A DNA stretch of 64,000 nt from positions 5,017-69,016 of the forward strand of contig JAZOBE010000009.1 of assembly GCA_045595785.1 (NCBI GenBank), written 5' to 3'. Below, piece by piece: positions 5,183 through 62,822 of the stretch. Numbering within the stretch: the stretch's first letter is position 1; each line of letters starts with the position of its first letter. The DNA comes from Eubacteriales bacterium (lineage in GTDB: Bacteria; Bacillota; Clostridia; Oscillospirales; CAG-382). A program made the position numbers and the translations under genes. The notes below the pieces were generated by a model, which had not been told where the DNA came from, did no database searches, and saw only the letters and a program-made list of their open reading frames with translations.

Positions 5183-5239
5183 GTAGGAAATTAAATTGTA
5201 AATCTTTTGCCGTTTGCCATTGTGGGGTGGTCTTTTTTC

Positions 5240-5273
5240 GGGGTCCCCGAGAAACCGAAGGTTTCTTGGGGTG
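5240..5273 (+). repeat. P1 hairpin module between the two tRNA genes
   Basis: GGGGTCCCCGAGAAACCGAAGGTTTCTTGGGGTG. Confidence 0.85.
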
Positions 5274-5282
5274 ATTGTCTTT

Positions 5283-8706: not shown

Positions 8707-8852
8707 CTTCAGGACGTTGGTTCGGTTAATTGTTGACATTAGTGTGGTGCGAACAGTTTGCGGGAGGGGAACGCAAAGCGTTAAACCCCTCCCCTACAGT
8801 TATCGAAACACCGTAACTTTTCTTGACATTTGTTTTGTTTACATATATAATA
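8707..8852 (+). repeat. promoter-carrying repeat, copy A
   Basis: The 132-nt core 8721-8852 matches 44841-44972 with 7 mismatches. It contains the hairpin GGGAGGGG-N17-CCCCTCCC and ends one base after a -10 hexamer. Confidence 0.9.
8823..8851 (+). promoter_or_regulatory. consensus sigma-A promoter TTGACA-17-TATAAT (inside repeat copy A)
   Basis: TTGACA at 8823-8828, TATAAT at 8846-8851. The ATG of the downstream gene is at 8885. Confidence 0.65.
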
Positions 8853-20597: not shown

Positions 20598-20606
20598 TAA
20601 AAGATA

Positions 20607-20779
20607 CCCCCAAAAAAGGTTTTTAGGATGCTGAGGGTGTTTCACGAAAAATCACCCCTGAAATCCGCACAATACCCACGCCGAAAGGCGAGGAGTTTTG
20701 GATGCAGAAGGAATTTTCGAGAGTGGGGAGCTGTAGTAACCTACTGCCCCCCGAACGAAAATTTCTTATGCGCCAAAAG
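20607..20779. repeat. mosaic palindromic element (P6 + P3 modules)
   Basis: 20607-20672 is the reverse complement of the insert unit seen twice at 61553-61737. 20696-20779 is a P3 long hairpin with core GCTGTAGTAACCTACTGC. Confidence 0.75.
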
Positions 20780-35534: not shown

Positions 35535-35574
35535 GGAACGAGGAATGTGACGCGATGCGTTTCACGCACCGCTA

Positions 35575-35655
35575 AATGAGGAATTATTGTTGATTTTTGT
35601 TCCACGGAACAAAAATCCTCCTTCATTCATCATTTATCCTTTATCATTTCTCATT
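35575..35655 (+). repeat. 81-bp palindromic element, second family, copy 1
   Basis: AATGAGGAAT..hairpin TTTTTGTTCC-AC-GGAACAAAAA..CATTTCTCATT. Same architecture as the reverse complement of 62743-62822. Confidence 0.75.
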
Positions 35656-35675
35656 TATCATTTCAATTTAATGCT

Positions 35676-37673: not shown

Positions 37674-38303
37674 GTGGTCGCTTTGTATATTATTCTTGGT
37701 ATCATCGCGATTTTTTGCTTGTTTCTTTGCCTGCGCGCAAAGGTTACCGTGGCATGGTGCAACGATCTGTTTGTGCGTGTGGGTTTGGGCCCCGTATCCT
37801 ATGAATTTGCGTTAAGCGATTTCAAAAAGGAAAAAAGCACGGAGGAAAAGAAGCCTCCTGCCGAAGCAGAGAAAAAAGCAAAAAAGAAAAAGACAAAAAA
37901 GAAGAAAACAAAAGAAAAGAAAAATGTCCCCTTTACCGAGCAATTAAAGTTTTTCTATGAGCTTTTGGTTGCCGTATACAAGCATTTCGGTAAAAAGATA
38001 CGGGTGGATAAATACGTGCTCAAGGTTTCCGTCGGCACCGACGACCCTGCACAGACCGCAGTTTTATACGGCGCGTTAAGCGGAGTTATGGCAAATATCA
38101 CCGCTTTGATATTAAAATTCAACCACAAGAAAAACGCACGGATATATTCCGAGTGCAAGCCGGATTTTTTAAGCGGCAGTATGGATATATACGCGGATAT
38201 CGGCGGCTCGGTAATGCTGTGGAATATATTGATAACCGGAATATGCCTGCTGTTTATCTGGCTGAAAAAGAAACTGAAAAAGAAAAAAACCGCGCAAAAA
38301 TAA
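37674..38303 (+). CDS. ytfI: DUF2953-type sporulation membrane protein (YtfI-like)
   Basis: GTG start abutting the scpB stop, N-terminal TM helix and a Lys-rich linker. Its position upstream of ytfJ matches B. subtilis ytfI-ytfJ. Confidence 0.55.
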   Translation: MVALYIILGIIAIFCLFLCLRAKVTVAWCNDLFVRVGLGPVSYEFALSDFKKEKSTEEKKPPAEAEKKAKKKKTKKKKTKEKKNVPFTEQLKFFYELLVAVYKHFGKKIRVDKYVLKVSVGTDDPAQTAVLYGALSGVMANITALILKFNHKKNARIYSECKPDFLSGSMDIYADIGGSVMLWNILITGICLLFIWLKKKLKKKKTAQK

Positions 38304-38315
38304 CAAAAATCCTAT

Positions 38316-38596
38316 GAACGCGGAGTATTCGGCGCAGAAGAAATCTTTTACGAGCGGAATCTCCACCCCACAAAACCGAAGGTTTTGCGGGGAACCCCGG
38401 GAGCTGTACAAAGGTACAGCAAGCGAAGTAAAAGTTTCTACAAAAACGCAATGCAAATAAATTTTGAGGAAATCCTGCAAGGATTTCTACCGCAAAAATC
38501 GTAATTACCACGGACGGTCGGGGACGCCCGTCCCTACCGATTACCAAAATCTTTTAGTGTGTGCGTTTTTGGTTCTGCGTTGAATAAACGCGTTCC
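38316..38596. repeat. complete mosaic palindromic element with terminal inverted repeats
   Basis: Left TIR GAACGCGGAGTATTCGGCGCAGAA. P3 with a P1 (38364-38398) nested in its arm. CAAAAACGCA (38441-38450). P5 GAAATCCTGCAAGGATTTC. P2 GGACGGTCGGGGACGCCCGTCCC. TGCGTTTTTGG (38563). Right TIR TTCTGCGTTGAATAAACGCGTTCC. Confidence 0.85.
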
Positions 38597-38619
38597 GGAA
38601 TATAAGGAGTTACTGCATT

Positions 38620-39081
38620 ATGAAAGATATACCTCTCAAGCAAATAATCGAAGCATCTCTTTCCAAGATCGGCTCTGTGGCTGACGTTAATACCGTAGTA
38701 GGCGACCCTATTACTATTGACGGCGGTATAACCATCGTGCCTTTTTCCAAGGTATCCGTAGGCTTTGCCTCCGGCGGTGTGGATTTTGACGGAAAGAACT
38801 CCCCTCCCGAAAGCAACCCTCACTTTGCAGGCGGTAACGGCGCCGGTGTAAGCGTGGTTCCTCTGGGATTTTTGCTTATACAGAACGGTGAGGTCCGTAT
38901 GCTTGACCTGAAGAACCCCGCATCCTTTGAGTATGCGCCTCAGGACCCTGTAAGCAAGACCATTACCGCTGTTAACTCGCTTATTGATAAAGGTCCCGAG
39001 CTGGTGCTTAAGATAAAGGATATTATTTCCTCCAACGCTCCCGCCGCAGAGGAGACCGTTCCCGAGGAAACTCAGGAATAA
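38620..39081 (+). CDS. ytfJ: sporulation protein YtfJ (GerW family)
   Basis: VVGDPITIDGGITIVPFSKVSVGFASGG..GAGVSVVPLGFL. Confidence 0.85.
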   Translation: MKDIPLKQIIEASLSKIGSVADVNTVVGDPITIDGGITIVPFSKVSVGFASGGVDFDGKNSPPESNPHFAGGNGAGVSVVPLGFLLIQNGEVRMLDLKNPASFEYAPQDPVSKTITAVNSLIDKGPELVLKIKDIISSNAPAAEETVPEETQE

Positions 39082-39779
39082 TGGAGAGAATACAAAAATA
39101 TATTGCCGCCTGCGGTGAGTATTCCCGACGGGCGGCTGAAAAAGAGATTCTTGCAGGCAGAGTTACGGTTAACGGCGTGAAGGCGGAGATAGGTATGTCC
39201 GTTTCCGACAAGGACGATATCCGTATCGGGGGAGTTCCCCTTAAAAAAGAGACCCAAAAGGTTACGGTCATGCTGAATAAGCCTATGGGTTACGTTACCA
39301 CCATGAGCGATGAATTGGGCAGAAAAACGGTTTCCGACCTGATTGACCTGCCTTACCGCCTGTATCCTGCAGGCAGACTGGATAAGGACAGCGAGGGTCT
39401 GCTTATAATGACCAACGACGGTGAGCTTGCAAACCGTCTTACCCACCCGAGGACAGGCAAAAAGAAGATATACCACGTTTATTTGCGGGGAAATATCGAA
39501 AACAACGCGCTGGATTCCCTCCGTGCCATGCGGATGCTGGACGATGAAAAGATAAACCCCGTGGGAGTGGAGCTGATAAAGCGTTCCCCCAACGGAAGCG
39601 TTGTTAAATTTGTACTTACCGAGGGCAAGAACCGACAGATACGCCGTATGTGCGAAAGCGTTTGTCTTACCATAACCCAGCTTAAGCGTGTGCAGATCGG
39701 CTCGCTCCATCTGGGTGAATTAAAGACGGGTGAATACCGCCGTCTTACAAAACAGGAAATAGGAGAGCTTCTTAAATGA
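39081..39779 (+). CDS. rluB: pseudouridine synthase, RsuA/RluB family
   Basis: S4 domain (RIQKYIAACGEYSRRAAE..GRVTVNG) and catalytic GRLDKDSEGLL. Confidence 0.88.
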   Translation: MERIQKYIAACGEYSRRAAEKEILAGRVTVNGVKAEIGMSVSDKDDIRIGGVPLKKETQKVTVMLNKPMGYVTTMSDELGRKTVSDLIDLPYRLYPAGRLDKDSEGLLIMTNDGELANRLTHPRTGKKKIYHVYLRGNIENNALDSLRAMRMLDDEKINPVGVELIKRSPNGSVVKFVLTEGKNRQIRRMCESVCLTITQLKRVQIGSLHLGELKTGEYRRLTKQEIGELLK

Positions 39780-40078
39780 TAACCACAAAACAGCGCGCAT
39801 ACCTGCGCTCACTTGCAAACACTCTTCCTGCACTTTACATTGCAGGAAAGGGCGAGGTTACCGAAAATCAGATACGCACCTTTGCCGACGGATTGGAAAA
39901 GAAAGAGCTTATTAAAATATCCGTGCTGGAGACCAGCCCTTATACCCCCAGAGAATTGTGTGATATTCTTGTGGAGGAAACAGGCGCAGAGCCCGTGCAG
40001 GTTATCGGAAGAAAGATAGTGCTGTATAAGCAGGTGAAGAATAAAGAGAACAGAAAAATAGAACTGCCGGTTAAATAA
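39776..40078 (+). CDS. yhbY: YhbY family (CRM domain) RNA-binding protein
   Basis: 100 aa. TTKQRAYLRSLAN..ELIKISV. ATGA overlap with rluB. Confidence 0.85.
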   Translation: MITTKQRAYLRSLANTLPALYIAGKGEVTENQIRTFADGLEKKELIKISVLETSPYTPRELCDILVEETGAEPVQVIGRKIVLYKQVKNKENRKIELPVK

Positions 40079-40107
40079 TAACTCACGGCTACAATAATTA
40101 AAAATCC

Positions 40108-40423
40108 GAAGGACGCAGGATATTTGGCGGGGTCCCCGAAAATCGAAGATTTTTGGGGTGCCTTTGGCGCAGAAAACGTCTTTCGCGAGCGTGGCGTAGT
40201 AACCTACGACTAGCGAAGCGAAAGCGGTTACAAAAACGCAAAACAAATAAATTTGCAGGAAATCCTGCAAGGATTTCTACCGATAAAACCGTGAGAAAAA
40301 CGGACGGTCGGGGACGCCCGTCCCTACGGTTAACGAAACCTTTTAGTATGTGCGTTTTTGGTTTCGGGGTCCCCGCAAATCGAAGATTTGTGGGGTGACT
40401 TGTGCGGCAAATAGGCGCGTCCC
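40108..40423. repeat. complete mosaic palindromic element
   Basis: TIR GAAGGACGCAGGATATTTGGCGG, P1 (40129-40160), P3 (40163-40240), CAAAAACGCA, P5, P2, TGCGTTTTTG (40351-40360), P1 (40366-40397), then TIR ..GCGGCAAATAGGCGCGTCCC. Confidence 0.9.
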
Positions 40424-40432
40424 AAATGTATT

Positions 40433-41491
40433 ATGAGAATATTAATATTCGGAGGAGCCTTTGACCCTCCCCACCAAGGTCACGTTAATGCGGCGAAAGC
40501 GGCGTATGACCGAATAAAGCCCGATATTTTCTATATTATCCCTGCCTTTGACCCGCCGTTGAAGGATGCTCCCGTTACCCAAAGCAGCCACAGAATGAAT
40601 ATGTGCGCGCTGGCTTTTGGAGATATACCCAACGCGGTGGTTTCGGATATTGAGATAAAGCGTGGGGAAAAGAGCTATACCTATATAACTCTGGCAGAAA
40701 TAAAGGAAAAGCACCCCGAAAGCGAAATTTTTCTGCTTGTGGGCGCTGACCAGCTTGAGCAGTTTGAGAAATGGGCGCGTTACGAGTATATTCTTGAAAA
40801 CTGCACCCTTTGCGTTGCAGGCAGAGGCGAAAAGGAAATAAACAAAAAGTACGAAAAGGTTATTCTGTTGGAAAACGAGAAAACCGATATATCCTCCACC
40901 GAAATTCGGGCAGGTGTGCGGGATAAGCTTCCCGAAAAGGTGTATGAATATATAAAGGAAAAGGGGCTTTACCGCGGAAACCACGTTGAAGGGGTTATTA
41001 AGTACGCGGAGATGCTGAGGGCGGATTGCTTCCCTCACCTTGATAAAGCCGACGTGTTTACCGCCGCCTCTATGCACGACAGCACCAAGGGACTTGACCA
41101 GCAGGCGATATTTGAAAGCCACGGTGTGGAGATTGACAGCGATATGAAAAATTCCCCTGCGGTGATGCACGCATTTACCGCCGCACTGAATATGGAAAAG
41201 CAGGGGGAAAAAGAGAGCGTTGTAAACGCTGTCCGCTACCATACAACCGGCAGACCGAATATGACGGATATTGAAAAAGTGGTTTTTATTGCCGATTATA
41301 TCGAGGAAAACAGGCGGTACGACCATTGTGTCCGTATGCGGAACGAATATCTGAAGCACCGCGGAAGCACGGATATAAACAACATGATAAAGCAAATACT
41401 AAATTCCACCGTACAGCATCTTGAGGAAAAAGGGGATTTTATTCACCCTCTTACCTTGCAGGCGATGGAATATTATAAACAAGGAGAATAA
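40433..41491 (+). CDS. nadD: fused nicotinate-nucleotide adenylyltransferase (NadD) and HD-domain YqeK phosphohydrolase
   Basis: The N-terminal half has GGAFDPPHQGH and ISSTEIR. The C-terminal half has the HD-domain pattern H..HD....RYHTTG..ADYIE, as in YqeK. Confidence 0.85.
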   Translation: MRILIFGGAFDPPHQGHVNAAKAAYDRIKPDIFYIIPAFDPPLKDAPVTQSSHRMNMCALAFGDIPNAVVSDIEIKRGEKSYTYITLAEIKEKHPESEIFLLVGADQLEQFEKWARYEYILENCTLCVAGRGEKEINKKYEKVILLENEKTDISSTEIRAGVRDKLPEKVYEYIKEKGLYRGNHVEGVIKYAEMLRADCFPHLDKADVFTAASMHDSTKGLDQQAIFESHGVEIDSDMKNSPAVMHAFTAALNMEKQGEKESVVNAVRYHTTGRPNMTDIEKVVFIADYIEENRRYDHCVRMRNEYLKHRGSTDINNMIKQILNSTVQHLEEKGDFIHPLTLQAMEYYKQGE

Positions 41492-41495
41492 ATAA

Positions 41496-41837
41496 ATGGC
41501 AGAAGTTGCATTACAGGATAAGATTGCCGCAGTTGCTAAAGAAGCACTTGACAGCAAGAACGGACAAGATATAAAGGCGTTGCACGTTGCGAAGCAGACC
41601 GTGCTGGCAGACTGGTTCGTGCTGGCGACGGGTACGTCAAACACACATATAAACACCCTTGCAGACGAGGTTGAGTTCAAGGTAAAGGAACAGCTTGGTG
41701 TTGACCCTATCCGCACCGAGGGCAGAGGAAATAATATGTGGATATTGGTGGACTACGGCTCTGTTATAGTTCACGTGTTTACAAAAGAAGGCAGAGAGTT
41801 CTATAAGCTTGACAAGCTCTGGGCAGATATCAAGTAA
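41496..41837 (+). CDS. rsfS: ribosome silencing factor RsfS
   Basis: 113 aa. LADWFVLATGTSNTH..WILVDYGSVIVHVF..REFYKLDKLW. Confidence 0.92.
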   Translation: MAEVALQDKIAAVAKEALDSKNGQDIKALHVAKQTVLADWFVLATGTSNTHINTLADEVEFKVKEQLGVDPIRTEGRGNNMWILVDYGSVIVHVFTKEGREFYKLDKLWADIK

Positions 41838-41843
41838 ATTGTA

Positions 41844-42183
41844 GGAACGCGGCTATTTAACGCAGATCCAAAAACGCAAAAATTTATATAATTTCTGTTC
41901 AGCAAATTTCCGGTTGTAGGGACGGGCGTCCCCGAAGCGCACCCCACAAATGCTAATTCGCATTTGCGAGGACCCCGCTCCGACGCCCCGCATTCCCGCA
42001 GCCAAATAAGGTAAATTTTTGTAGAATAAATCTACAAAAATTATTTCACATGCGTTTTTGTAACCGCTTTCGCTTCGCTAGTCGTAGATTACTACGCCAC
42101 GCTTGCGAAAGACGTTTTCTGCGCCAAAGGCACCCCAAAAATCTTCGATTTTCGGGGACCCCGCTAAATATCCTGCGTTCTTC
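41844..42183. repeat. complete mosaic palindromic element (exemplar)
   Basis: TIR GGAACGCGGCTATTTAACGCAGATC, CAAAAACGCA, P2 + P1 double hairpin (41916-41999), P4 TTTTTGTAGAATAAATCTACAAAAA, TGCGTTTTTG (42051), P3, P1 (42131-42162), then TIR GCTAAATATCCTGCGTTCTTC. Confidence 0.9.
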
Positions 42184-42248
42184 AGACTTTTGGGTTTTAC
42201 AGCCGTGGCTTGCCCTTGCAATTTGATTATTATTTTCAGGTGATATAT

Positions 42249-44645
42249 ATGAAATACAATTACAAAGAGTATGAATCCCATTGGCAGAAAAAGTGGGAGG
42301 ACGACAAGGTTTTTGTCTGTGATATAGACAAAAGCAAAAAGAAGTTTTACGGTCTGGTAGAGTTTCCCTACCCCTCCGGTGCAGGCATGCACGTTGGCCA
42401 CATAAAGGCATACGGCGGACTTGAGGTTATTACCCGTAAAAAGCGTATGGAGGGATACAACGTTCTGTTCCCTATCGGCTTTGATGCGTTTGGTCTGCCT
42501 ACCGAAAACTACGCTATAAAGACAAACACCCACCCCAGAGTGGTTACCGATAACAATATTGCAAAGTTTACATCCCAGATGAAGCGTGTGGGCTTTGGCT
42601 TTGACTGGACGAGAGTTATTGATACCACCGAAGAGGACTATTACAAGTGGACCCAGTGGATATTCCTTAAGCTGTTTGAAAACGGTCTTGTTTTCCGTGA
42701 TAAGGCGCTGGTAAACTATTGTCCCTCCTGCCGCTGCGTGCTTTCCAACGAGGACAGCCAGGGCGGTAAGTGCGATATCTGCCACAGCGACGTTGTGCAG
42801 AAATCCAAGGACGTTTGGTACTTAAGAATAACCAAATATGCAGACAAGCTGCTGCAGGGTCTTAAGGACGTTGATTATCTGCCCAACATCGTTCTCCAGC
42901 AGGAAAACTGGATCGGTAAGAGTGAAGGCGCATTTGCCAACTTCAAGCTTAAAGAGGTTGACGAGTGCTTACGTATCTACACCACCAGACCCGACACTAT
43001 GTTCGGCGTAACCTTTATGGTTATGGCTCCCGAGCATCCTCTCCTTGACAAATATGCAGACAAAATAACCAATATGGACGCTGTTCTTGAATACCGCGCC
43101 CTTTGCGCAAAGAAGACCGAGTTTGAGCGCACCCAGCTTAACAAGGACAAGACCGGCGTTAAGCTTGAAGGCCTTACGGCTATCAATCCCCTTTCCGGCA
43201 AAGAGGTGCCTATATTTATTTCCGATTACGTTATGATGGGCTACGGCACCGGCGCGATTATGGCTGTACCCGCACACGATGACAGAGACTTTGAGTTTGC
43301 ACGCAAGTTCGGTGTGGATATAATTCCCGTTATCAAGGGCGGCGACGGTGAGAGCGCTTATACCGGTGACGGAGAAATGATAAACTCTGAATTCCTCAAC
43401 GGAATTTCCAATAAGAAGGACGCTGTAAGCGCCGCTATAAAGGTGCTGGAGGAAAAGGGTCTGGGCGAGGGCGGTACCCAGTTTAAGATGAAGGACTGGG
43501 CGTTTAACCGTCAGCGTTACTGGGGTGAGCCTATTCCTATCGTTCACTGCGAGCATTGCGGTGACGTGGCTGTGCCTTATGGTGAACTTCCCCTCCGCCT
43601 CCCCGATATGGAGCAGTTTGTTCCCGGCGAGGGCGGTGAAAGCCCTCTTGCAAAGGTTGAAAGTTTTGTTAACTGCGTTTGCCCCAAGTGCGGCAGAGAC
43701 GCAAAGCGTGAGACGGATACCATGCCTCAGTGGGCAGGATCAAGCTGGTACTTCCTCCGTTATCTTGACCCCAAGAACAAGGACGAATTCTGTTCCAAGG
43801 AAGCACTGGATTACTGGATGCCCGTTGACTGGTACAACGGCGGCATGGAGCACGTTACCCGCCACATGATCTATTCCCGTTTCTGGCACCGCTTCCTTTA
43901 CGATATCGGTGAGGTAAACACTCCCGAGCCTTACGCAAAGCGTACCGCGCAGGGTCTTATTCTCGGCCCCGACGGTGAGAAGATGTCCAAATCCCGCGGA
44001 AACGTTGTTGACCCTAACGAGATAGTTGACAAGTTCGGCGCAGACGTTCTCCGTGTGTATATAATGTTTATGGGCGATTATGAGAAGGCGTCCCCCTGGA
44101 ACGATTCTTCCGTACGCGGCTGTAAGCGTTTCCTTGACAGAGTTGCAGGTATGGCAGAGCTGCCCGGCGTTGCATCCGATTCCGCAAGTGAATCCGCCAT
44201 CCATAAGCTGATAAAGAAGGTTTCAAGCGATATTGATAATATGAAGTTCAACACCGCCATCGCCGCGATGATGACATATATCAACACCGTTTACGAAAAG
44301 AACGCTATAAACCGTGATGAGCTCAAGATTTTTGTAAAGCTGCTGGCACCCTTTGCACCTCACCTTGCAGAGGAAATGTGGCATGACCTTGGCGAAAGCA
44401 CTTACGTTTCTCTCGCTCCTTGGCCCGTACACGACGAGAGCAAGACGGTTGACAACACCGTTGAGATCGCAGTGCAGTTCCTCGGCAAGCTTAAGGGCAC
44501 GGTTGTCGTTCCTGCTGATGCTGACGAGGACACCGCGTGGGAGATCGTATCCGCATCCGGCGTGCTTGACCAGGCGCTGGAAGGCAAGACTATCGTAAAG
44601 AAGATATATGTTAAAGGCAGAATCTTCAACGTAGTCGCTCGGTAA
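42249..44645 (+). CDS. leuS: leucine--tRNA ligase
   Basis: ATG at 42249 (MKYNYKEYE..); upstream ORF-track residues are repeat DNA. HIGH-type motif HVGH and KMSKS are present. 798 aa. Confidence 0.95.
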   Translation: MKYNYKEYESHWQKKWEDDKVFVCDIDKSKKKFYGLVEFPYPSGAGMHVGHIKAYGGLEVITRKKRMEGYNVLFPIGFDAFGLPTENYAIKTNTHPRVVTDNNIAKFTSQMKRVGFGFDWTRVIDTTEEDYYKWTQWIFLKLFENGLVFRDKALVNYCPSCRCVLSNEDSQGGKCDICHSDVVQKSKDVWYLRITKYADKLLQGLKDVDYLPNIVLQQENWIGKSEGAFANFKLKEVDECLRIYTTRPDTMFGVTFMVMAPEHPLLDKYADKITNMDAVLEYRALCAKKTEFERTQLNKDKTGVKLEGLTAINPLSGKEVPIFISDYVMMGYGTGAIMAVPAHDDRDFEFARKFGVDIIPVIKGGDGESAYTGDGEMINSEFLNGISNKKDAVSAAIKVLEEKGLGEGGTQFKMKDWAFNRQRYWGEPIPIVHCEHCGDVAVPYGELPLRLPDMEQFVPGEGGESPLAKVESFVNCVCPKCGRDAKRETDTMPQWAGSSWYFLRYLDPKNKDEFCSKEALDYWMPVDWYNGGMEHVTRHMIYSRFWHRFLYDIGEVNTPEPYAKRTAQGLILGPDGEKMSKSRGNVVDPNEIVDKFGADVLRVYIMFMGDYEKASPWNDSSVRGCKRFLDRVAGMAELPGVASDSASESAIHKLIKKVSSDIDNMKFNTAIAAMMTYINTVYEKNAINRDELKIFVKLLAPFAPHLAEEMWHDLGESTYVSLAPWPVHDESKTVDNTVEIAVQFLGKLKGTVVVPADADEDTAWEIVSASGVLDQALEGKTIVKKIYVKGRIFNVVAR

Positions 44646-44646
44646 G

Positions 44647-44826
44647 TCGGGCGTGTATCTTGGGTCAGACCAAAAACGCAAAAGATACAATAAAATGTAT
44701 CGAAAACCGTAGGGGACGGCGTCCCCGACGTCCCGAAAACAAATAAAACTGCAGGAATCCGCTTGATGCGGATTCCTTTCATTTTATGTTCGCGTTTTTG
44801 TTCTGATTTGTTTTACCATCGCTCCC
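44647..44826. repeat. mosaic palindromic element
   Basis: ..GGTCAGACCAAAAACGCA, P2-like GTAGGGGACGGCGTCCCCGACGTCCC, P5-like GGAATCCGC-ttgat-GCGGATTCC, then CGCGTTTTTGTTCTGA... Confidence 0.8.
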
Positions 44827-44972
44827 TTCAGGCCATTTGCTTCGGTTAATTGTTGACGTTGGTGTAGTGCGAACAGTTTGCGGGAGGGGAACGCAAAGCG
44901 TTAAACCCCTCCCCTACAGTTATCGAAACACCGTAACATTTCTTGACATTTGCTCTTTTTACATATATAATA
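44826..44972 (+). repeat. promoter-carrying repeat, copy B
   Basis: See 8707-8852. The 132-nt core 44841-44972 has 7 mismatches to copy A. Confidence 0.9.
44943..44971 (+). promoter_or_regulatory. consensus sigma-A promoter TTGACA-17-TATAAT (inside repeat copy B)
   Basis: TTGACA at 44943-44948, TATAAT at 44966-44971. The downstream ATG is at 45001. Confidence 0.65.
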
Positions 44973-48663: not shown

Positions 48664-48784
48664 AACGCCGGATTTGGATGCAGAGCCAAAAACGCAACAA
48701 GTAAAAGGTTTCGATAATCGTAGGGACGAAGCGCACCCCACAAATGCTAATTCGCATTTGCAGGGACCCCGCTACGGGCGTCCG
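48664..48784. repeat. partial mosaic element (one terminus + double hairpin)
   Basis: CGCCGGATTTGGATGCAGAGCCAAAAACGCA, then GTAGGGACG..P1(48734-48770)..CGGGCGTCCG. Confidence 0.8.
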
Positions 48785-50567: not shown

Positions 50568-50580
50568 TTCAAATCAAGTT

Positions 50581-50714
50581 GGAACGCATCTATTTGATGC
50601 AGAGCCAAAAACGCAAAATATAATATAGTTTTTGTAAACGTCTTTACTTCGCCGGCTGTGGATTATACAGCACGGTCGTAAAGAACGTTTTCTGCATTTG
50701 AAAGCCCTGCGTCC
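50581..50714. repeat. mosaic palindromic element (TIR + boundary motif + P3 + TIR)
   Basis: GGAACGCATCTATTTGATGCAGAGCCAAAAACGCA, P3 with core GCTGTGGATTATACAGC (50629-50700), then ..TTCTGCATTTGAAAGCCCTGCGTCC. Confidence 0.85.
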
Positions 50715-50797
50715 ATCAGACAATCAGTATTATAGACAATTGTTTCGTGCGAACAGTTTGATAACACCCACAGCTACAATCTTAAAGGATTATAAAA

Positions 50798-54077: not shown

Positions 54078-54108
54078 CCGTGGCGGCTGTAATTATATAA
54101 AATCTGAT

Positions 54109-54242
54109 GAACGCAGAGCTTTTGGATGCAGAAAACGTTCTTTACGAGCGTGCTGTAGTAACCTACAGCCAGCGAAGTAAAGACGTTTACAAAAACTATA
54201 TTATATTTTGCGTTTTTGGGTCTGCATCCAAGTGCTCCGCCC
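54109..54242. repeat. mosaic palindromic element (TIR + P3 + boundary motif + TIR)
   Basis: GAACGCAGAGCTTTTGGATGCAGAA, P3 with core GCTGTAGTAACCTACAGC (54120-54196), then TGCGTTTTTGGGTCTGCATCCAAGTGCTCCGCCC. Confidence 0.85.
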
Positions 54243-55981: not shown

Positions 55982-56368
55982 ATGACAAGACGTGAATCCC
56001 GTGAGGCGGCGCTTTGCCTCATTTACGAACAATCCTTTTCGCCGGAGATCAGCACTGACGAGATAATCGAAAAAGCAAAAGAAATACGTGAGGAAAAGAT
56101 TTCCGCCTTTGCCGCAGAGCTGTTTAACGGCGTTTGCGAAAAGAAGCAGGCAATCGACCTTCGCATCTCCTCTGCCGCAGAAAACTGGTCTATTGAGAGA
56201 ATATCCAGAGTTTCTCTGTGTATTCTTCGTCTTGCTGTGTATGAGATAACCTATCTCGGCACCGAAAAGCAGATTGCGGTAAACGAAGCGCTTGAGATTG
56301 CAAGAAAGTATGACGAAGAGAAAAGCGTGAACTTTATTAACGGAGTTTTAGCCGGAATAATCAATTAG
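55982..56368 (+). CDS. nusB: transcription antitermination factor NusB
   Basis: ATG at 55982 (MTRRESREAALCLIYE..) with RBS GGAGAA. 128 aa. Confidence 0.92.
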   Translation: MTRRESREAALCLIYEQSFSPEISTDEIIEKAKEIREEKISAFAAELFNGVCEKKQAIDLRISSAAENWSIERISRVSLCILRLAVYEITYLGTEKQIAVNEALEIARKYDEEKSVNFINGVLAGIIN

Positions 56369-56659
56369 TCCGCGTCTATTTGACGCAGATCCAAAAACGC
56401 AATGTTATATAGATGTTCGCTGTAATAAACACCCAATGTAGGGGCGATTCACAAACCACACCCCACAAATGCCATTGGCATTTGCGAGGACCCCGTGGAA
56501 TCGCCCGCTTATTCCACAGCAAAAATTAAGGTAAATTTTTGTAGAATAAATCTACAAAAATTATTTATTTGCGTTTTTGTAAACGTCTTTACTTCGCTAG
56601 CTGTAGATTACTACAGCACGCTCGTAAAGAACGTTTTCTGCGCCAAATATCCTGCGTCC
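56369..56659. repeat. complete mosaic palindromic element, same module order as 41844-42183
   Basis: TCCGCGTCTATTTGACGCAGATCCAAAAACGCA, double hairpin (56438-56508), P4 (identical to 42010-42046), TGCGTTTTTG (56570), P3 with core GCTGTAGATTACTACAGC, then TTCTGCGCCAAATATCCTGCGTCC. Confidence 0.9.
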
Positions 56660-56691
56660 TTGAATTATTATTTTTTTATACTTCTGATTTT

Positions 56692-59000: not shown

Positions 59001-59350
59001 TTCTGTGCGGCGGGGGCAAGCCACCCGCCCTACAAACACGCCACGGCTACCGGCTACAGCATCCAAAATCAGAACAGAGCGATGGTAAAAAGCTGTAAAA
59101 ACCATTTTTACGAGTGGGGAGCTGTAGTATTCTACTGCCCCCCGAGTAAAAACGGTTAGAAACGCAAAATTAAAAATTCCCGTAGATTTGTTCTACGGGA
59201 ATTTACCTTATATTTGATTGTGGGGAAGCGGGGCGTCGGAGCGGGGTCCCTGCAAATGCGGCCAGCATTTGAGGGGTGCGTTTCGAGGGCGCCGCCCCCT
59301 ACATTGGATGTTCGCCGAAGCAAACATTAAACATTTTTGCGTTTCGTTCT
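59001..59350. repeat. mosaic palindromic element cluster (variant modules)
   Basis: Hairpin GGCGGG..CCCGCC (59009-59030). P3 with core GCTGTAGTATTCTACTGC (59085-59165). GAAACGCA boundary variant. Hairpin ATTCCCGTAGA..TCTACGGGAAT (59175-59205). Double hairpin in opposite orientation (59226-59302, P1 at 59243-59278). TGCGTTTC boundary variant. Confidence 0.8.
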
Positions 59351-61419: not shown

Positions 61420-61493
61420 AATGTTCAATTTAATTTTCCCTTCAACATTGTGAGCTAATAAAAACAATTAACTCTTTGTTTTTCTTTTTTTGT

Positions 61494-61746
61494 GGGGTCC
61501 CCGAGAAACCGCAGGTTTCTTGGGGTGTTTTTTTTGTGGGGTCCCCGAGAAAGCGTTTTTACGGAATAATATACCGTCTGTATGGGGTGTTTCGTGAAAC
61601 ACCCATCGTTATCTAAAAACCTTTCTTGGGGCGTTTTTTTTGTGGGGTCCCCGAGAAAGCGTTTTTACGGAACAATATACCGTCTGTATGGGGTGTTTCG
61701 TGAAACACCCATTGTTATCTAAAAACCTTTCTTGGGGTTTTTCGGT
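61494..61746. repeat. P1 hairpin followed by two tandem 106-bp units, each a P1 hairpin split by a 69-nt nested insert
   Basis: Intact P1 at 61494-61527. Units begin at 61535 and 61641 (period 106) and read GGGGTCCCCGAGAAA-[insert]-CCTTTCTTGGGG. Confidence 0.9.
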
Positions 61747-62389: not shown

Positions 62390-62421
62390 ACCCCAAGAAA
62401 CTTTCCGTTTCTTGGGGAACC
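62390..62421 (-). repeat. P1 hairpin module between rpmH and rnpA
   Basis: ACCCCAAGAAACTTTCCGTTTCTTGGGGAACC. Confidence 0.75.
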
Positions 62422-62624: not shown

Positions 62625-62742
62625 TCGGAATACACCTCCTGTAAATTTTCAAAAAAATAATTGCGCCGTTACAATACCTAAACATAGGCAAATGCTATTA
62701 TAAACATAAAAACAAGGATTTGTCAAGGGTTTTTTTGAAAAA

Positions 62743-62822
62743 AATGAGAAATGATAAACGATAAACGATAAATAAATGTTGTTTTTTTGCACGTCGTGCA
62801 AAAATCTTCCGCATTTCTCATT
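62743..62822 (-). repeat. 80-bp palindromic element, second family, copy 2 (inverted relative to 35575-35655)
   Basis: AATGAGAAATG..TTTTGCACG-T-CGTGCAAAA..CATTTCTCATT. Confidence 0.75.

Follow-up and report, generated by a model that had tools for sequence, protein, structure and literature searches.

Near-identical inverted arms around nadD-yqeK and rsfS in a Clostridia genome: probable outer ends of two mirror-oriented mosaic repeats

Introduction

Among described systems, the closest to the DNA considered here are the repetitive extragenic palindromic (REP) sequences and bacterial interspersed mosaic elements (BIMEs) of Escherichia coli and other enterobacteria, together with modular miniature inverted-repeat transposable elements (MITEs) such as Correia of Neisseria and the pneumococcal BOX and RUP. 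In REPINs, two inverted half-sites together make up the replicative unit, which forms a long hairpin in single-stranded DNA and is mobilised by RAYT (REP-associated tyrosine transposase) enzymes (Bertels and Rainey 2011, PMC3116915). Inverted repeats also bracket the DNA segments of invertons (fimS, hin, promoter inversions of Bacteroides); there the repeats are short (about 10-30 bp), a dedicated site-specific recombinase is encoded nearby, and it is usually a promoter that is flipped. Finally, Elhai and colleagues are said to have described in 2008, as 'Very small mobile repeated elements', cyanobacterial hairpin units of 20-40 nt capable of insertion into each other as well as into larger repeats (work cited in PMC3116915). 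The present study concerns a stretch of 64,000 nucleotides, hereafter the window, from contig JAZOBE010000009.1 (Eubacteriales bacterium, assembly GCA_045595785.1), in which a sequence-only reading had noticed two near-identical inverted copies of 133 nt, hereafter the arms, facing each other across the genes nadD-yqeK and rsfS. Positions are those of the window.

The two arms are probably the outer ends of two mirror-oriented copies of one mosaic, hairpin-rich, non-coding and non-autonomous repeat of the REP/BIME or MITE type, between which a tract would have been copied. In itself the pair is of modest interest. Essential genes can be flanked by near-identical inverted copies without any switch or mobile cassette being involved; in repeat-dense genomes, such an arrangement is expected when mosaic repeats exchange tracts. 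The most interesting lead is a small hairpin, P1, nested in each arm.

Two mirror-oriented composite elements

The left arm (40108-40240, plus strand) and the reverse complement of the right arm (42051-42183, minus strand) align over 133 nt each without gaps and with four mismatches (129/133, 97.0%), located at 40112 (G/A), 40126 (G/A), 40187 (G/A) and 40203 (C/T), as had been noticed. A repeat search extends the homology to 40084-40254 and 42037-42207 (171 nt, 90%), with 1782 nt in between. The longest exact inverted match of the window lies in the arms and measures 60 nt (40127-40186), compared with 14-20 nt in 20 shuffles. Each arm contains a T module, a nested P1 hairpin and a long P3 hairpin; both the sequence and its folding as single-stranded DNA bear out this anatomy, already proposed from the sequence. 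In the left arm, P1 is formed by CCCCGAAAATC-GAA-GATTTTTGGGG at 40134-40158. P3 is a long imperfect hairpin (40174-40229, plus strand) whose tip region GCGTAGTAA(C/T)CTACGA folds as GTAG-TAAC-CTAC. In the right arm, P1 is at 42130-42163 and P3 at about 42062-42117. The left-arm strand as written folds better than the other strand (-27.8 versus -20.9 kcal/mol) because of G.T pairs, and the arm hairpins are more stable than those of shuffles (z = -2.6 and -1.9). The P3 hairpin is upheld by compensatory changes in 7 of 16 pairs (11 family members); such changes, in P3 as in P1, are as expected of palindromic repeat families. Its distribution is narrow, nhmmer matches being confined to a group of Clostridia metagenome-assembled genomes (MAGs) from the ruminant gut (loci L001, L002, L005, L006, L007, L019, L025 and L057 only).

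The arms are parts of larger objects. The intergenic spacers of the window are crowded with a few small modules that recur in varied order and orientation. Globally aligned, the left spacer, between yhbY and nadD, and the reverse-complemented right spacer, between rsfS and leuS, match collinearly throughout their length. Each spacer is therefore one full-length composite copy (about 320-345 bp), the two being mirror-oriented, and in each copy the reported arm makes up the outer third. The left composite (40084-40424, plus strand) is in the 'reverse' orientation and fills the yhbY-nadD spacer; it is composed, in order, of O, T, nested P1, P3, a small hairpin module, a REP-like palindrome, GCGTTTTTGG, a second nested hairpin P1' and T', modules that recur elsewhere in the window. 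The right composite (41841-42207, plus strand), in the 'forward' orientation, fills the rsfS-leuS spacer with T, a REP-like palindrome carrying a nested P1'', the small hairpin module, GCGTTTTTG, P3, nested P1, T and O. Identity along the alignment is uneven: about 65% in the outer module O, 97% in the arm, about 55-75% with insertions and deletions in the inner modules, and 20/20 in the REP core. This core, a GTAG-tagged GC-rich palindrome common to both composites (TCGGGGACGCCCGTCCCTAC), reads GTAGGGACGGGCGTCCCCGA on the minus strand at 40308-40327 and is identical at 41916-41935. The sequence-only reading had placed only nadD-yqeK and rsfS between the arms. This is nearly right, but the 1810 nt in question also hold about 190 and 210 nt of repeat modules from the same two elements.

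The mosaic character of the family is apparent throughout the window. The T and T' ends (GGAACGCnnnTATTTnnCGCAGA), terminal inverted repeats that match at about 18 of 23 positions, bound elements of 140-345 bp at 41841-42186, at 56366-56665, which is again a full-length element, and at 50578-50720 and 54103-54240, which are short versions of about 140 bp (T, GCGTTTTTG, P3, T'). Module maps of at least 15 spacers show variable combinations and orientations of motifs, and the best partner differs from module to module, being 38439-38574 for the left inner module (87% identity), 56524-56566 for the right small-hairpin module (98%) and 48727-48773 for the right palindrome with its P1'' (96%). GTAG-tagged GC-rich palindromes are found at 38512, 40302, 41916, 44713, 8762, 44882 and 59009; the enrichment of CTAC after hairpins is weak (6 occurrences against a mean of 2.3 per tetramer, rank 14 of 256). 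Such composites would have been assembled from smaller modules, namely the T end, P3, the small hairpin, the GTAG-tagged palindrome and the T' end.

Other copies of these modules had been described as clearly more diverged. This holds for the arms themselves, which are 77-80% identical to the copies at 54.1 and 56.6 kb, but not for other adjacent inverted pairs of the same element family, which are just as alike (54128-54196 and 56573-56641, 97%; 50593-50665 and 54159-54231, 93%). Near-identity of adjacent inverted copies is therefore recurrent, as the pairs at 50.6, 54.1 and 56.6 kb attest, and is not unique to nadD-rsfS. The latter two pairs (50.6-56.6 kb) bracket a mgsA/rarA-like gene through nusB, as well as a DUF512 radical-SAM gene, der and plsY.

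A tract copied with its nested hairpin

In the left arm, P1 occupies 40128-40161 (plus strand; covariance model R1, 50.5 bits). It interrupts the T module at an identical point in both arms, and is flanked by duplicated TTTGGCG (40123-40129 and 40163-40169 in the left arm). A paralogous 'empty' site at 56641-56661 reads GGACGCAGGATATTTGGCGCAGAAAAC, without P1. Since the arms share the nested P1 and the same TTTGGCG duplication, they would have been copied from one another after the nesting of P1, and not independently assembled. One may thus envisage that P1 hairpins of about 34 nt became inserted into the composite modules and that one element then received from the other a tract in which a P1 was already nested, by gene conversion or recombination between the homologous elements or by module replacement. 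A tract of high identity within diverged homologous flanks, together with mosaicism, fits the product of gene conversion or recombination between dispersed copies. Conversion is the copying mechanism that we infer, and no programmed function would be involved.

The arms had been interpreted earlier as products of recent duplication or of ongoing conversion. That they are real paralogous copies agrees with the 97% tract set in far more divergent modules (about 55-75%) and with the same nested P1. The idea of ongoing conversion is not supported, since differences in the T module are fixed per side in independent samples and no sign of continuing homogenisation is observed. At 40112 and 40126, the left arm has G and G in the window and in the related contig L012; the right arm has A and A in the window, L001 and L005. 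The difference at 40187 is private to the right arm of the window. Hence, the copying predates the split of strains about 1% apart in the core block. It would have taken place before the sampled strains diverged, and the copies would then have drifted independently.

P1 copies other than those of the arms are also nested in the two composites. P1' (40365-40398, plus strand) lies in the left T' end; L135 and L137 lack it at the orthologous site, a direct sign of its recent gain or loss. The variant P1'' (41939-41977, minus strand; R1, 49.7 bits) sits inside the REP-like palindrome of the right element, an arrangement found again at 48733-48771. The target duplication at P1 amounts to 5-7 bp (TTTGGCG) in one comparison of filled and empty sites, and to TT only in another.

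Spacer haplotypes in related strains

The lineage is an under-sampled branch of Clostridia/Eubacteriales. Close homologues of NadD-YqeK are few (99, 74, 72 and 68% identity, the next being at 35%); at the species level, the relative is the MAG GCA_045533895.1 ('Eubacteriales bacterium'), with metagenomes of the ruminant gut as the remaining sources. A scan of metagenome contigs with the NadD-YqeK protein gave distant homologues only (28-48% identity) and no orthologous loci, and exact-protein look-ups with the NadD-YqeK, YhbY and NusB of the window and with cluster member P0091 found nothing on record. In total, 15 related contigs were recovered, and order and orientation were judged wherever visible. 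A comparison of orientation in relatives, suggested in the sequence-only reading, could thus be made: yhbY, nadD-yqeK, rsfS and leuS are co-directional wherever they are visible in these contigs. The same order is kept in L013, a 175-kb contig with 68% protein identity.

Among contigs 98-99% identical to the window in nadD-rsfS, the spacers differ widely. In the window, both spacers contain a full composite. L001 and L002 have in the left spacer a 101-bp unrelated repeat of a family called A (like 35575-35662 of the window), and in the right spacer an orthologous composite (about 99%). L005, in which only the right spacer is covered, has the same orthologous composite (about 99%). In L131, the A family occupies both spacers, as an inverted pair bracketing nadD-rsfS (81 nt, 90%). 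L012 has the left element of the window minus 237 bp, and its right spacer starts with an inverted A-family repeat. L135, in which only the left spacer is covered, has another left allele that shares the T' end only, without P1'. The more distant L003, L006, L013, L136 and L137 show other combinations of modules, L013 having three tandem P1 between rsfS and leuS. The locus is therefore a compact example of repeats reshaping operon spacers, with four or five spacer haplotypes among strains 98-99% identical in the coding block. The same repeats fragment metagenome assemblies of the lineage.

That the repeats serve as recombination substrates, as had been supposed, is borne out by the 237-bp deletion of L012. 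Its junction (194-230 of that contig) is a hybrid P1, with the 5' half from 40128-40161, the 3' half from 40365-40398, and a stem mismatch. The deletion thus results from recombination between two direct P1 copies, so that copies of 34 nt do recombine in the yhbY-nadD spacer. On a larger scale, rsfS alleles co-segregate with the type of right spacer (99.4-100% identity within groups versus 97.4-97.7% between), and identity to L001 and L131 steps at the left spacer from about 93% (ytfJ-rluB; 38604-40078) to about 99% (from nadD on; 40428-44728). Allele co-segregation and the identity step indicate that the strains are recombinant and that the spacers coincide with breakpoints.

The A family is a second repeat family, made of a near-palindrome of about 75 nt (GAGGAAT..GATTTTTGTTCC-ACG-GAACAAAAATC..) followed by runs of TCATTT-type heptamers. 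It is found at 35535-35662 and 62742-62806 of the window, at 1863-1951 and 3368-3495 of L131 and at 4832-4932 of L001, and in relatives it stands in for the composite element in either spacer. A separate observation concerns L006 and L007 (1-206; 89% rsfS nucleotide identity), where a composite (3' half of P3, inner module, T' end) is directly upstream of rsfS, at the place where yqeK is expected. On these short contigs, either a repeat has split the junction between nadD-yqeK and rsfS, or the genes have been rearranged.

Alternative explanations

The sequence-only reading had supposed that the segment might be invertible, or might have moved as a composite unit. A RecA-dependent inversion of the 1.8-kb nadD-yqeK-rsfS segment by means of the arms would leave both orientations in the population, either incidentally or as a crude switch of expression. 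Arms of 133 nt at 97%, with a perfect block of 60 nt, exceed the minimal length usual for homologous recombination; the much shorter direct P1 copies have recombined in the same spacer (L012), and the inner parts of the spacers would move along with the genes. Inversion by general homologous recombination is mechanistically possible, as an incidental event rather than a switch. However, the opposite orientation is seen in no related contig; all 15 show the standard co-directional order, though none has both arms. The longest perfect identity is just 60 bp, a scan of 30 open reading frames (ORFs) between 29.5 and 62.3 kb with Pfam, reaching about 10 kb upstream and 20 kb downstream, revealed no recombinase or transposase gene, and the inner spacers contain no convincing promoter (5 promoter-like sites against 4.9 expected). 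Moreover, inversion would leave essential genes head-on to their neighbours, and the differences fixed on each side speak against frequent exchange between the arms. An invertible segment is thus unlikely. As to mobility, inverted near-identical terminal repeats do bracket a gene block, as they would in a composite mobile unit that arrived at the site. Yet the arms encode no transposase and are the outer parts of larger elements with differing inner parts, and the context yhbY-nadD-yqeK-rsfS-leuS is kept in relatives of 68-99% protein identity, some of which lack one or both arms (L001, L002, L131, L013). Relatives without arms have the block in its ancestral place, and this for practical purposes rules out that it arrived as a composite unit.

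A role at the RNA level would account for the near-identity by selection. P1 and P3 hairpins could act as a terminator, an attenuator or an mRNA stabiliser, or the two arms of a polycistronic transcript could pair in a long duplex cut by RNase III, as happens around rRNA genes, thereby uncoupling nadD-rsfS from yhbY and leuS. When transcribed, repeats of the REP and Correia types influence the stability of mRNA and its processing by RNase III; here, the hairpins surpass shuffles and are kept by covariation, and L131 brackets the same genes with an inverted unrelated repeat. Against such a role, haplotypes without a matching pair exist (L001, L002, L012), P1 has no strand bias, and mirrored pairs are often expected from two abundant repeat families in random orientation. 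Since the arms are opposite relative to transcription, a strand-specific role cannot fit both. No T-tract follows the hairpins and no terminator-like site is found at the arms; a consensus scan for promoters and terminators from 38.2 to 42.4 kb shows no excess over shuffles. At gathering score, Rfam 15 finds only two tRNAs in the whole window, hence no known structured RNA family at the arms, and at E <= 5 the interval 38200-42400 has nothing relevant to the arms or P1. Selection at the RNA level is accordingly a doubtful explanation, with a low probability. A last option is that the window is a chimera of co-occurring strains joined within a repeat, the arms having never been in one genome. 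This would be in line with the jump in identity to L001 and L131 (93% to 99%) exactly at the left spacer, with both arms being present in no other contig, and with the common breakage of contigs of this lineage at these repeats. Nevertheless, the outer 86 nt of the left spacer (T module and 5' half of P1) are confirmed in the independent sample L012, joined to yhbY on one side and to nadD on the other, and the right spacer is confirmed in L001, L002 and L005. The longest exact repeat, 60 nt, is short enough for long-k assemblies. Real recombination among strains explains the mosaic identity equally well, and rsfS alleles co-segregate with the right-spacer allele. An assembly artefact thus appears very improbable.

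Several points nonetheless weigh against the preferred explanation, that of mirror-oriented mosaic repeats with a copied tract. Both arms together are found in none of the 15 related contigs, and the configuration rests on one assembly. For the composite element, no empty site or target-site duplication is definable in the relatives, which carry a different repeat. No cognate transposase, of the RAYT or insertion-sequence type, is seen in the 64 kb of this genome. A 133-bp sub-element recently inserted at two similar sites would fit the data as well as conversion does. Finally, the inverted unrelated repeat that brackets the same genes in L131 could hint that bracketing itself is selected.

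The P1 hairpin across phyla

P1 is about 34 nt long and consists of a constant clamp, C-GGGG-T-CCCC-G ... T-GGGG-TG, around a covarying stem. The covariance model finds 11 full copies plus variants in the window, with sites at 40128-40161, 42130-42163, 40365-40398, 5239-5274, 1517-1552, 38363-38398, 41939-41977, 48733-48771, 56458-56495, 59242-59279, 61493-61528 and 62390-62417. The region 61516-61727 is a tandem 106-nt duplication (97%) whose unit is a P1-type hairpin with an insert of about 70 nt in the loop; the insert is itself a repeat, also present in inverted orientation at 20599-20649.

The distribution of P1 was assessed with the exact pattern GGGGTCCCCGVRAA-N8-18-TGGGGTG in one genome per GTDB species. 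At least 117 stretches match (numbered L014-L130), and what follows refers to the matches listed, which comprise 132 hits and 97 distinct sequences. They are from Clostridia, Eubacteriales and Oscillospiraceae, from Bacteroidales and Paludibacteraceae, from Pullulanibacillus pueri (Bacillales) and Acidobacteriaceae (Acidobacteriota), and also from Dormiibacterota, Actinomycetes, Alphaproteobacteria, Nitrospirota, Cloacimonadota and Saccharibacteria, that is at least 10 phyla. The part left unconstrained by the pattern forms on average 6.85 consecutive pairs, versus 1.64 in shuffles, and the base preceding GGGG is C in 122 of the 132 matches. In an alignment of 41 sequences, 96.7% of the cells are paired and covariation is 0.356, versus 0.123 in shuffles. 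Copies are often in tandem with a constant linker of 6-10 nt, or at the tip of a host palindrome; they are mostly intergenic and show no strand bias with respect to flanking genes (25 sense versus 21 antisense).

Clustering of the 3064 ORFs from the 117 loci disclosed no companion gene of P1, only ubiquitous families (ABC ATPases, response regulators, oxidoreductases, GTPases). A phage origin is unsupported, IMG/VR being nearly empty of P1 (3 stretches only). Tn3-like ends were considered in view of the GGGG tips and 5-bp duplications, and rejected because the inverted termini start with CCCC instead of GGGG and the duplication length is inconsistent. At E <= 5, Rfam has nothing relevant to the tandem P1 array of Pullulanibacillus, and a literature search with sequence words (GGGGTCCCCG and similar) returned unrelated eukaryotic papers only.

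It is tempting to imagine, if only tentatively, that P1 represents an undescribed cross-phylum family of ultra-small mobile hairpins (about 30-40 nt), inserting into other repeats, at host-palindrome tips and beside its own copies to form tandem arrays. If so, a widely conserved protein or host process would recognise the P1 clamp, and the arms around nadD-rsfS would be a local by-product. Whatever its nature, a hairpin with the same clamp in many phyla and with no Rfam entry poses the testable question of what mobilises or maintains it.

Genes and other features of the window

The gene names given in the sequence-only reading agree with Pfam. On the plus strand, upstream of the left spacer, is yhbY (39776-40078), encoding a CRM-domain RNA-binding protein (CRS1_YhbY, E = 7e-24). 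Between the composites are a nadD-yqeK fusion (40433-41491), combining a nicotinate-nucleotide adenylyltransferase and an HD hydrolase (CTP_transf_like and HD), homologues of which are named nicotinate-nucleotide adenylyltransferase, and rsfS (41496-41837), encoding the ribosomal silencing factor (RsfS, E = 1e-31). Downstream of the right spacer is leuS (42249-44645; tRNA-synt_1, leucyl editing domain and anticodon-binding domain); all four genes are on the plus strand. A T-box upstream of leuS was considered, and the Rfam search gave no match for it. Between 29.5 and 62.3 kb, the ORFs are housekeeping genes or have no Pfam match; those around the locus include scpA/B, ytfI/J, a rluB-like gene, yhbY, leuS, a response regulator gene, malQ, trmK and yceD. 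Neither spacer has a BLAST match among plasmids or phages.

Three further features deserve mention. A 136-nt direct repeat (94%) lies just upstream of two genes, at 8717-8852 and, 36 kb away, at 44837-44972; a partial copy is at 50729-50760. Within the repeat are a CTAC-tagged hairpin and a promoter close to consensus, TTGACA-N18-TATAAT, so that it may be a repeated promoter cassette. At 675-1024, 15-nt tandem repeats within the ORF 564-1466 encode a low-complexity stretch rich in Glu, Ser, Pro and Lys. An oriC was considered near yidC-rnpA-rpmH at the right end; neither GC skew nor the ORFs that follow speak for an origin within the window.

Comparison with known systems

With invertons, the locus has in common that inverted repeats bracket a DNA segment. 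Unlike in invertons, the repeats are copies of dispersed elements, the segment consists of essential housekeeping genes, no recombinase is adjacent, and only one orientation is found among the 15 related contigs. The comparison with composite transposons fails in another way: the arms are non-coding, and relatives have the cargo at its ancestral syntenic place whether or not arms are present.

The resemblance to REP sequences and BIMEs goes further. In both cases, short imperfect palindromes reside in the intergenic spacers of housekeeping operons, within non-coding mosaics of 100-400 bp in which the order and orientation of motifs vary and which are polymorphic between strains. The clustering of motifs in intergenic spacers, variously combined and oriented, corresponds to a BIME-type organisation. 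Some modules are moreover GC-rich palindromes tagged with GTAG/CTAC, although the enrichment of the tag is statistically weak. On the other hand, there is no sequence similarity, the host belongs to another phylum (uncultured Eubacteriales/Clostridia), the modules are longer (56 nt for P3) and heavily nested, and no RAYT gene is found in the available DNA. P3 and P1 share with REPINs the shape of a conserved hairpin made of two inverted halves. However, the link to a RAYT, which defines REPINs, is not seen in the 64 kb, and no conserved gene lies beside P1 in the 117 loci. Furthermore, REPIN sequences co-diverge with a lineage-specific RAYT; the constant ends of P1 are instead conserved across phyla. 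Thus, with hairpins and extragenic positions established and a GTAG tag that is suggestive, membership in the RAYT-dependent REP/REPIN class cannot be claimed.

Modular MITEs provide a parallel for the build of the composites. Like Correia, BOX and RUP, these measure 100-350 bp and have terminal inverted repeats (T and T'), as expected of MITEs, which are non-coding elements of 50-500 bp so bounded; like boxA-B-C they are modular, they are located in intergenic regions next to gene starts, and they are present or absent depending on the strain. They differ by far more nesting and exchange of modules. No parent insertion sequence is known for them; an autonomous insertion sequence sharing these ends is found neither in the window nor in the fetched loci, no genome-wide search having been made. 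For P1 itself, the closest analogue would be the small dispersed repeats reported from cyanobacteria, from which it differs in sequence and in host range, P1 being found in many phyla with the same clamp.

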